DNA of 64,000 nucleotides from sequence record MN148435, one strand, 5' to 3'. A model generated the notes under the pieces. The model made no database searches and was not told where the DNA came from. It saw only the letters and a program-made list of their open reading frames with translations. Both the position numbers and the translations under genes were made by a program. How positions within the stretch are numbered: the stretch's first letter is position 1; each line of letters starts with the position of its first letter. The stretch comes from Shigella phage SGF2. Below, piece by piece: positions 34,478 through 34,753 of this stretch.

Positions 34478-34753
34478 TTACTTATTTCTCAGGGCTGTGT
34501 CCAAAAATGCTTTCAGGTTTGCTTCAGTCTGCATACCGGAGAGGCTGTAGTGTGCACCACTGTTACGGTCAGGCACAACGAAAGCAGGGATACTTCGTAC
34601 ACCATACTTAACAGCTTGTTCACGACCACCACCTTCAAGGATGTTAATCTCTTCCACTTCTACATCAAACTCCTTAACAACCTTCTCAAAGGTAGGAGCC
34701 ATTGCTTTACATGGAGCACACTGATCACTATAAAACTTAATTACTTTAGACAT
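34478..34753 (-). CDS. thioredoxin
   Basis: 91 aa with active-site CAPC in thioredoxin context FYSDQCAPCKAMAPTFEKV. Confidence 0.7.
   Translation of the reverse strand: MSKVIKFYSDQCAPCKAMAPTFEKVVKEFDVEVEEINILEGGGREQAVKYGVRSIPAFVVPDRNSGAHYSLSGMQTEANLKAFLDTALRNK

Follow-up and report, generated by a model that had tools for sequence, protein, structure and literature searches.

The thioredoxin ORF of Shigella phage SGF2 is part of a Kuravirus middle-gene replication and nucleotide module, and the sequence of its product makes it very likely that the protein is redox active. We tentatively favour a role that is mainly redox, in nucleotide supply, a reading that may well be right though we would stop a little short of calling it probable. 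The polymerase of the same phage bears, by its sequence, a clearly homologous, shortened form of the T7 thioredoxin-binding domain in which the core docking strand is intact, and since the polymerase has this T7-type docking insertion, some thioredoxin probably belongs to the Kuravirus replisome; the insertion itself cannot tell the phage thioredoxin from host TrxA as its ligand. A survey of related phages, taken with the invariant CxxC motif, leads us to lean towards a redox helper that might bind the polymerase as well.

The window analysed is a stretch of 64,000 nucleotides from sequence record MN148435. Across the 8 kb that surround the thioredoxin gene, nucleotide identity is 94–97% to Escherichia phages DE5, SU10 and KM01 and to some 90 more, and the SGF2 polymerase protein is matched at 100% identity; this identifies the window as a fragment of a Kuravirus, a podovirus of the phiEco32/SU10 type with a C3-morphotype head, belonging to the Gordonclarkvirinae. 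The companions that the original prediction had given to the thioredoxin, a T7 gp4-like primase-helicase, a family A polymerase, and ThyX and dCTP deaminase as neighbours, are all present (Table 1).

Table 1. Positions in the window of the thioredoxin gene, its neighbours and the relevant parts of the polymerase
Feature	Position	Strand	Evidence
Thioredoxin gene, 91 aa, ATG start	34478..34753	-	Pfam Thioredoxin PF00085 E=4.4e-13, 49.6 bits against a cut-off of 23.5
AAGGA ribosome-binding site, 5 nt upstream of the thioredoxin ATG	34759..34763	-	Read from the sequence; overlaps the stop codon of the 59-aa ORF
ThyX, flavin-dependent thymidylate synthase	33806..34462	-	Pfam Thy1 E=3.5e-43
Small ORF, 59 aa, directly upstream of the thioredoxin gene	34762..34941	-	No Pfam match; hypothetical in the SU10 annotation
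Dps-family ferritin-like DNA-binding protein	35004..35567	-	Pfam Ferritin E=2.9e-7; PDB Dps proteins E=3e-9
dCTP deaminase	36578..37111	-	Pfam DCD E=4e-34
3'-5' exonuclease subunit, 184 aa, separate gene of the split family A polymerase	38493..39047	-	Pfam DNA_pol_A_exo1 E=4.8e-9
T7 gp4-type primase-helicase	39041..40831	-	PDB T7 gp4 E=1.5e-32; Pfam DnaB_C
Polymerase subunit, T7 gp5-like, 614 aa	27855..29699	-	phmmer against T7 gp5 E=5e-32; hhalign probability 100%, E=5e-54
Thumb insertion, polymerase residues 58-105, 48 aa	29385..29528	-	MAFFT with T7 gp5 and Klenow
Putative thioredoxin-docking strand G96-A-F-T-C-V-E-Y103	29391..29414	-	Equivalent to T7 A324-P-Y-T-P-V-E-H331 in MAFFT and hhalign

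The protein, whose sequence begins MSKVIKFYSDQCAPCKAM, has the active site C12-A-P-C15 and a cis-Pro loop R53-S-I-P56, and C12-A-P-C15 and I55-P56 align with C32-G-P-C35 and I75-P76 of E. coli TrxA. That the phage encodes a thioredoxin with a CAPC site, as had been predicted, is confirmed by the reading frame, by the Pfam family and by the match of the AF2 model to TrxA. Comparison with thioredoxins in the PDB gave E-values from 7e-10 to 1e-8 (about 1e-8 for E. coli TrxA chains), and when Foldseek was applied to the AF2 model, built with 14 homologs (pLDDT 91.8), the closest structures were those of E. coli Trx1 (TM 0.82, rmsd 1.6 Å, 28–30% identity). The modelled fold is a minimal one, with four strands and three helices in the order strand-helix-strand-helix-strand-strand-helix in place of the full five-strand, four-helix thioredoxin architecture; its first strand corresponds to TrxA beta2, and the N-terminal beta1-alpha1 is missing. 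The Trp that precedes the CxxC motif in WCGPC is also absent, with Gln11 at this position here and Gln, Ser, Thr or Asn across the C3-phage family, and 22 of the 60 short thioredoxins from a wider search likewise have no Trp there. The SU10 ortholog, gp065, is annotated ‘thiol-disulfide isomerase and thioredoxin’, as it is in many other records, and its product was identified by mass spectrometry (52.8% coverage; PMC4281155), so that the gene is expressed and a chance reading frame can be set aside. Thioredoxin, the Dps-like protein, polymerase, PhoH and a sigma factor were all found in purified SU10 particle preparations (PMC4281155), where they are either carry-over of abundant middle proteins or packaged non-structural proteins.

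Several features of the surrounding module deserve description. ThyX starts 15 nt past the thioredoxin stop codon, and on the other side the 59-aa ORF, whose two hydrophobic segments suggest a small membrane protein, shows translational coupling to the thioredoxin gene. A GC-rich stem-loop of 11 bp with a T-rich tail after it (34967-34995, minus strand) lies between the Dps-like gene and this ORF. Because of the coupling, and because the stem-loop separates off the Dps-like gene, one sub-operon may comprise the 59-aa ORF, thioredoxin and ThyX. No copy of the phage promoter motif TAATGTAT lies near the thioredoxin gene, and a generic scan for promoters and terminators was at chance level with the sole exception of the 11-bp stem-loop. 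The Dps-like protein apparently keeps the Dps iron-site motif. Between dCTP deaminase and the exonuclease subunit is a nucleotidyltransferase of 475 aa (37121-38548, minus strand) with a weak match to the head domain of poly(A) polymerase/CCA-adding enzyme. A cluster at 41051-50632 (minus strand) holds genes for a gamma-glutamyl cyclotransferase, a RimK-like ATP-grasp enzyme, a class-II glutamine amidotransferase, an Amidoligase_2 protein and a COOH-NH2 ligase-like protein; it can be likened to a maker of glutathione-like peptides and is common to LUZ24 (gp16-22), Privateer, 7-11 and Aeromonas BUCT695. The polymerase is split, the exonuclease gene lying beside the primase-helicase gene and the polymerase gene some 9 kb off, and the same holds for the LUZ24-like Pseudomonas phages and all C3-type relatives; in the SU10 annotation the exonuclease ortholog is a ‘DNA polymerase exonuclease subunit’. 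The C-terminal tail of the primase-helicase is acidic and its last residue is Trp (...ADGASPW). In T7, the acidic tail of gp4, with its terminal aromatic residue, binds basic loops of the thioredoxin-binding domain.

Conservation of the active site speaks for a redox function. The C-x-P-C motif and the cis-Pro are kept in 20 of 20 family members, down to 41% identity, and an exhaustive profile search returned 17,807 matches at E<=1e-3, the best 150 of which include 61 short single-domain proteins; CxxC is kept in all 60 complete short thioredoxins among these best 150. [quoted passage not shown] (1986), and a subunit with a structural role only would be free to lose at least its second cysteine over such divergence. 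The residues with which TrxA contacts thioredoxin reductase (P40, Y70, R73 and I75) are kept as well. It is because of the invariant CxxC, the dispensability of redox capacity in T7 and the kept reductase contacts that redox activity appears so likely, and the invariance of both cysteines counts at the same time against a dedicated processivity subunit of the T7 kind.

For the mainly redox reading, the proposed mechanism is that host thioredoxin reductase would keep the phage thioredoxin reduced and that the C12/C15 pair would pass electrons to disulfide-dependent steps of deoxynucleotide supply. Here the acceptor would presumably be the host NrdAB ribonucleotide reductase, which is the most economical client for a phage that already invests in dCTP deaminase, ThyX and dNMP kinase; in relatives, enzymes of this class encoded by the phage itself would take that place. 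The phage thioredoxin might be a ligand of the polymerase too. The neighbouring genes, which encode nucleotide-precursor enzymes, argue for this role, and so does what is found in relatives. In three metagenomic relatives (L092, L095 and L101) there is a conserved block of primase-helicase, exonuclease, dCTP deaminase, thioredoxin, small ORF, Dps and NrdD. Ribonucleotide reductase genes are present in all three, in Privateer and in BUCT695, and in Privateer and the crAss-like phage cr128_1 they lie in the same module as thioredoxin. A further example is Aeromonas phage BUCT695 (L098, 30263-33214), in which a thioredoxin of 76 aa with a CQTC site (family HMM E=2e-12) comes directly after two ribonucleotide reductase genes, while the usual slot between dCTP deaminase and Dps has no thioredoxin; this case ties the thioredoxin family to ribonucleotide reductase. 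The thioredoxin of cyanophage Syn5 provides a precedent. A thioredoxin-ThyX cassette shared with cr128_1 was also considered and was rejected, as the ThyX proteins align over 55 aa only, with 40% identity.

The main difficulty for the redox helper lies in its clients. Ribonucleotide reductase, peroxiredoxin and methionine sulfoxide reductase, and other classical thioredoxin clients, are all absent from the complete SU10 genome annotation, and the window holds no ORF of the right size for a ribonucleotide reductase that does not have another assignment. ThyX, to our knowledge, uses NADPH and FAD and not thioredoxin. About 93 Escherichia phage genomes nevertheless retain the gene, its active site intact, although they encode no ribonucleotide reductase, and some role independent of such an enzyme must therefore exist; this persistence is the strongest argument for a further partner that depends on the thioredoxin, possibly the polymerase. 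The replacement of the Trp before CxxC and of M37 (by Ala) throughout the C3-phage family is likewise atypical of housekeeping thioredoxins, and would fit co-adaptation with the polymerase, whose docking strand is conserved.

A thioredoxin-binding loop in the polymerase thumb was looked for by alignment to T7 gp5, as had been suggested with the original prediction, and an insertion that keeps the docking strand was found. Foldseek with the AF2 model of the polymerase (pLDDT 91.7) gave T7 gp5 for all of the top 27 matches (best E=2e-25), and E-values of about 1e-15 for Bst and Mycobacterium smegmatis Pol I. In a MAFFT alignment of the window polymerase with 27 homologs, T7 gp5 and the Klenow fragment, the insertion lies between thumb helices H and H1, where T7 has 71 residues (263-333), Klenow none and the window polymerase 48; the motif at the insertion site reads FNLSS in Klenow, FNPSS in T7 and FDPSK here. 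The insertion's homology is with the T7 thioredoxin-binding domain, of which it represents the C-terminal two thirds. Residues P54, P57, P69, G74, G96, F98 and F106 are invariant in 66 polymerase homologs (to 39% identity), and F70, G88 and P97 nearly so, which is why we regard the insertion as being under strong constraint. In the AF2 model it forms a unit of a strand (59-66), a helix (78-87) and a second strand (98-104), with pLDDT 88-93.

The putative docking strand, when given with the preceding Gly, is GGAFTCVEY (from G95) compared to GAPYTPVEH in T7 (G323-H331), and GGPFTxVxY in most relatives. Counterparts of T7 A324, P325, Y326, T327, V329 and H331 are conserved in both the MAFFT and the hhalign alignments, while those of P287, I289 and E319-V321 differ between the two; Y265, P267, F274 and P277 have no counterpart, since a segment of about 25 residues is missing from the window polymerase. 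In the complex of T7 gp5 with TrxA (PDB ID: 1T7P), T327 and V329 pair backbone-to-backbone with thioredoxin I75 and R73 (PMC10812433, supplement S6), P325 bonds A93, and the side chain of T327 bonds the C32 thiol (PMC10812433). Further gp5 contacts are made by Y265, P267, F274, P277, P287, I289, E319-V321, A324, Y326 and H331 (PMC10812433).

On the thioredoxin side, the residues of TrxA that contact gp5 are partly kept (C32, P34, I60, A67, R73 and I75) and partly changed (W31 to Gln, M37 to Ala, P68 to Val, T89 to Ser, V91 to Ser, A93 to Met and L94 to Gln). Within the T7 complex W31 and M37 touch P267, P277 and F274 (PMC10812433), which are in the segment that the window polymerase does not have. 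The paired loss, read from the two sequences, fits co-adaptation of the two proteins, though it proves nothing. A co-variation at the position of T7 Y320, which is Phe in LUZ24-like phages and Glu, Asp or Asn in C3-like phages (whose thioredoxin has Ser for V91), was rejected: Glu also occurs in C3-like relatives in which no thioredoxin lies closer than 10 kb to the polymerase, and hhalign places gaps at T7 319-321, which makes the equivalence of the residues unreliable.

The two genes are distributed differently among related phages. The polymerase clade comprises 244 phage records (Pseudomonas 105, Escherichia 95, Aeromonas 11, Proteus 8, Salmonella 7, Cronobacter 6, Vibrio 3, and others), whereas tblastn with the thioredoxin gave 126 records, none of them from Pseudomonas, Aeromonas or Vibrio. 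Identity among the Kuravirus copies of the thioredoxin is 95–100%, and copies in Salmonella phage 7-11 and Proteus phage Privateer are 41–46% identical. The complete genome of LUZ24 has a matching replication module and the polymerase insertion, and no thioredoxin was found in it by annotation, by tblastn (best E=2.7) or by HMM. The insertion and docking strand are as well conserved in the LUZ24-like phages as in the phages that encode a thioredoxin. Among the metagenomic relatives, L011 too has a thioredoxin less than 10 kb from its polymerase, and five others (L091, L093, L094, L096 and L097) have none within that distance; these five absences cover 10 kb around the polymerase and are provisional, because the BUCT695 homolog sits 11.6 kb from its polymerase, while the absence from the complete LUZ24 genome is firm. 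In one of the five (L094/P0012) the polymerase shares 69% identity and its insertion hardly differs from that of phages with a thioredoxin gene, and the thioredoxin slot between Dps and ThyX is filled by an unrelated, highly basic ORF of 96 aa (1982-2272) that has no family match. The insertion thus does not co-occur with a phage thioredoxin gene as would be expected for a dedicated subunit, in either the LUZ24-like phages or, over the 10 kb on each side of the polymerase, the five metagenomic relatives. Because relatives that have no thioredoxin gene keep the insertion equally well, host TrxA can probably fill the role of polymerase thioredoxin, and that the insertion is independent of a phage thioredoxin (LUZ24, P0012) in turn favours the redox helper.

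These results bear directly on the idea that the phage thioredoxin is a dedicated processivity subunit, predicted to dock by beta-strand addition on polymerase residues 96-103 and to clamp the thumb over the duplex as TrxA does for T7 gp5, which would make the phage independent of host trxA. We consider this possible but on balance doubtful. The gp5-like polymerase, the insertion at the site of the binding domain with its invariant residues, the conserved docking strand, the kept thioredoxin contacts, and the correspondence of the lost contacts W31 and M37 to an absent T7 segment (Y265-P277) are all as it would require, and a predicted fold closest to that of E. coli TrxA itself, the retention of both thioredoxin and polymerase in all isolated C3-morphotype phages and the lack of a phage ribonucleotide reductase in Kuravirus also argue for it. 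However, the equal conservation of insertion and docking strand in LUZ24-like phages, which make up the 105 Pseudomonas phage records, and the metagenomic relatives with no thioredoxin near the polymerase, argue against it. A survey of viral contigs found a thioredoxin near just 2 of 80 T7-type polymerase loci, a count that says little about the Kuravirus polymerase clade as most of these are generic T7-type polymerases matching in the C-terminal domain only. The stricter form, in which a split T7-like polymerase with a trimmed thioredoxin-binding domain has the phage thioredoxin as its obligate processivity subunit, is unlikely.

The original prediction had offered both a dedicated processivity subunit and a reductant for nucleotide metabolism. 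The former gained the docking insertion in the polymerase, but the insertion is kept where there is no phage thioredoxin and the cysteines are invariant, so that ‘dedicated’ is the part that these results argue against; the latter is favoured by the two cysteines, which are kept in every homolog, but has no phage-encoded client in Kuravirus.

A third explanation, that thioredoxin and the Dps-like protein form a small anti-oxidant unit guarding replicating phage DNA or iron- or radical-dependent enzymes, seems very improbable: though the Dps identity is supported by PDB Dps proteins, the two genes are one or two genes apart in the relatives examined, both are among the few middle genes common to all C3 phages and both proteins are abundant in SU10 proteomics (PMC4281155), and the Privateer authors file thioredoxin under stress response (PMC7881722), three relatives (L094, L091 and BUCT695) keep the Dps-like gene with no adjacent thioredoxin, and an adjacency inherited in one phage lineage is a single evolutionary event. 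Nor is any Dps protein known to be a client of thioredoxin.

As a piece of genome annotation the thioredoxin is a routine finding, and both the gene and the idea of coupling to the polymerase, the latter as a hypothesis, are already known from the literature. The SU10 paper lists thioredoxin among the few middle genes common to all C3 phages (PMC4281155), and the Privateer paper (2021) noted that it is kept in every C3 phage and hypothesised coupling with the T7-like polymerase for processivity (PMC7881722). [quoted passage not shown] Kuravirus is an unusually clean test case, having no ribonucleotide reductase of its own and a polymerase with a recognisable docking strand, and it has practical assets in an E. 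coli host for which trxA knockouts exist and in several isolates in public phage collections. If the thioredoxin were an obligate subunit, it would become the first thioredoxin encoded by a virus to have a demonstrated place in a replisome, and would free the phage from the dependence on host trxA that limits T7, with the LUZ24-like relatives representing the host-dependent state. A part as polymerase subunit would explain why the gene is carried, and would offer biotechnology a processive polymerase complete with its own partner. If the protein acts as a reductant, its gene would be one more among the many in phages that increase the supply of nucleotides.

The closest known system on the polymerase side is the T7 gp5-TrxA complex (PDB ID: 1T7P). 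The Kuravirus polymerase is closest to gp5, with the insertion at the same site and the docking strand kept, and the primase-helicase resembles T7 gp4 down to its acidic C-terminal tail. It differs in that the insertion has 48 residues rather than 71, without the segment containing Y265, P267, F274 and P277, in that the polymerase is divided over two genes, and in that thioredoxin binding is putative. Though its model superposes on E. coli TrxA at 1.6 Å, the Kuravirus thioredoxin is encoded by the phage, has 91 residues compared to 109, is without beta1-alpha1, and reads QCAPC where TrxA reads WCGPC. The annotated thioredoxin orthologs in phiEco32, SU10 (gp65), Salmonella phage 7-11 and Proteus phage Privateer (gp070) have the same gene order and show no substantive difference. 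A similar picture is provided by T4 NrdC, which we take to be a phage thioredoxin/glutaredoxin serving ribonucleotide reductase, and by the Syn5 thioredoxin, both being, like the Kuravirus protein, small phage CxxC proteins in a nucleotide-metabolism and replication module. Homologs in relatives stand beside ribonucleotide reductase genes; Kuravirus, in contrast, has no ribonucleotide reductase of its own, so that a role of this kind must run through the host enzyme. In Syn5 the phage thioredoxin, which has redox activity, increases genome replication; docking on the polymerase is predicted for host thioredoxins and not for the phage's own (10.1101/2025.10.05.680603). For its own system, that study came to a conclusion similar to the one we favour here, in which the phage thioredoxin would act mainly as a redox helper.
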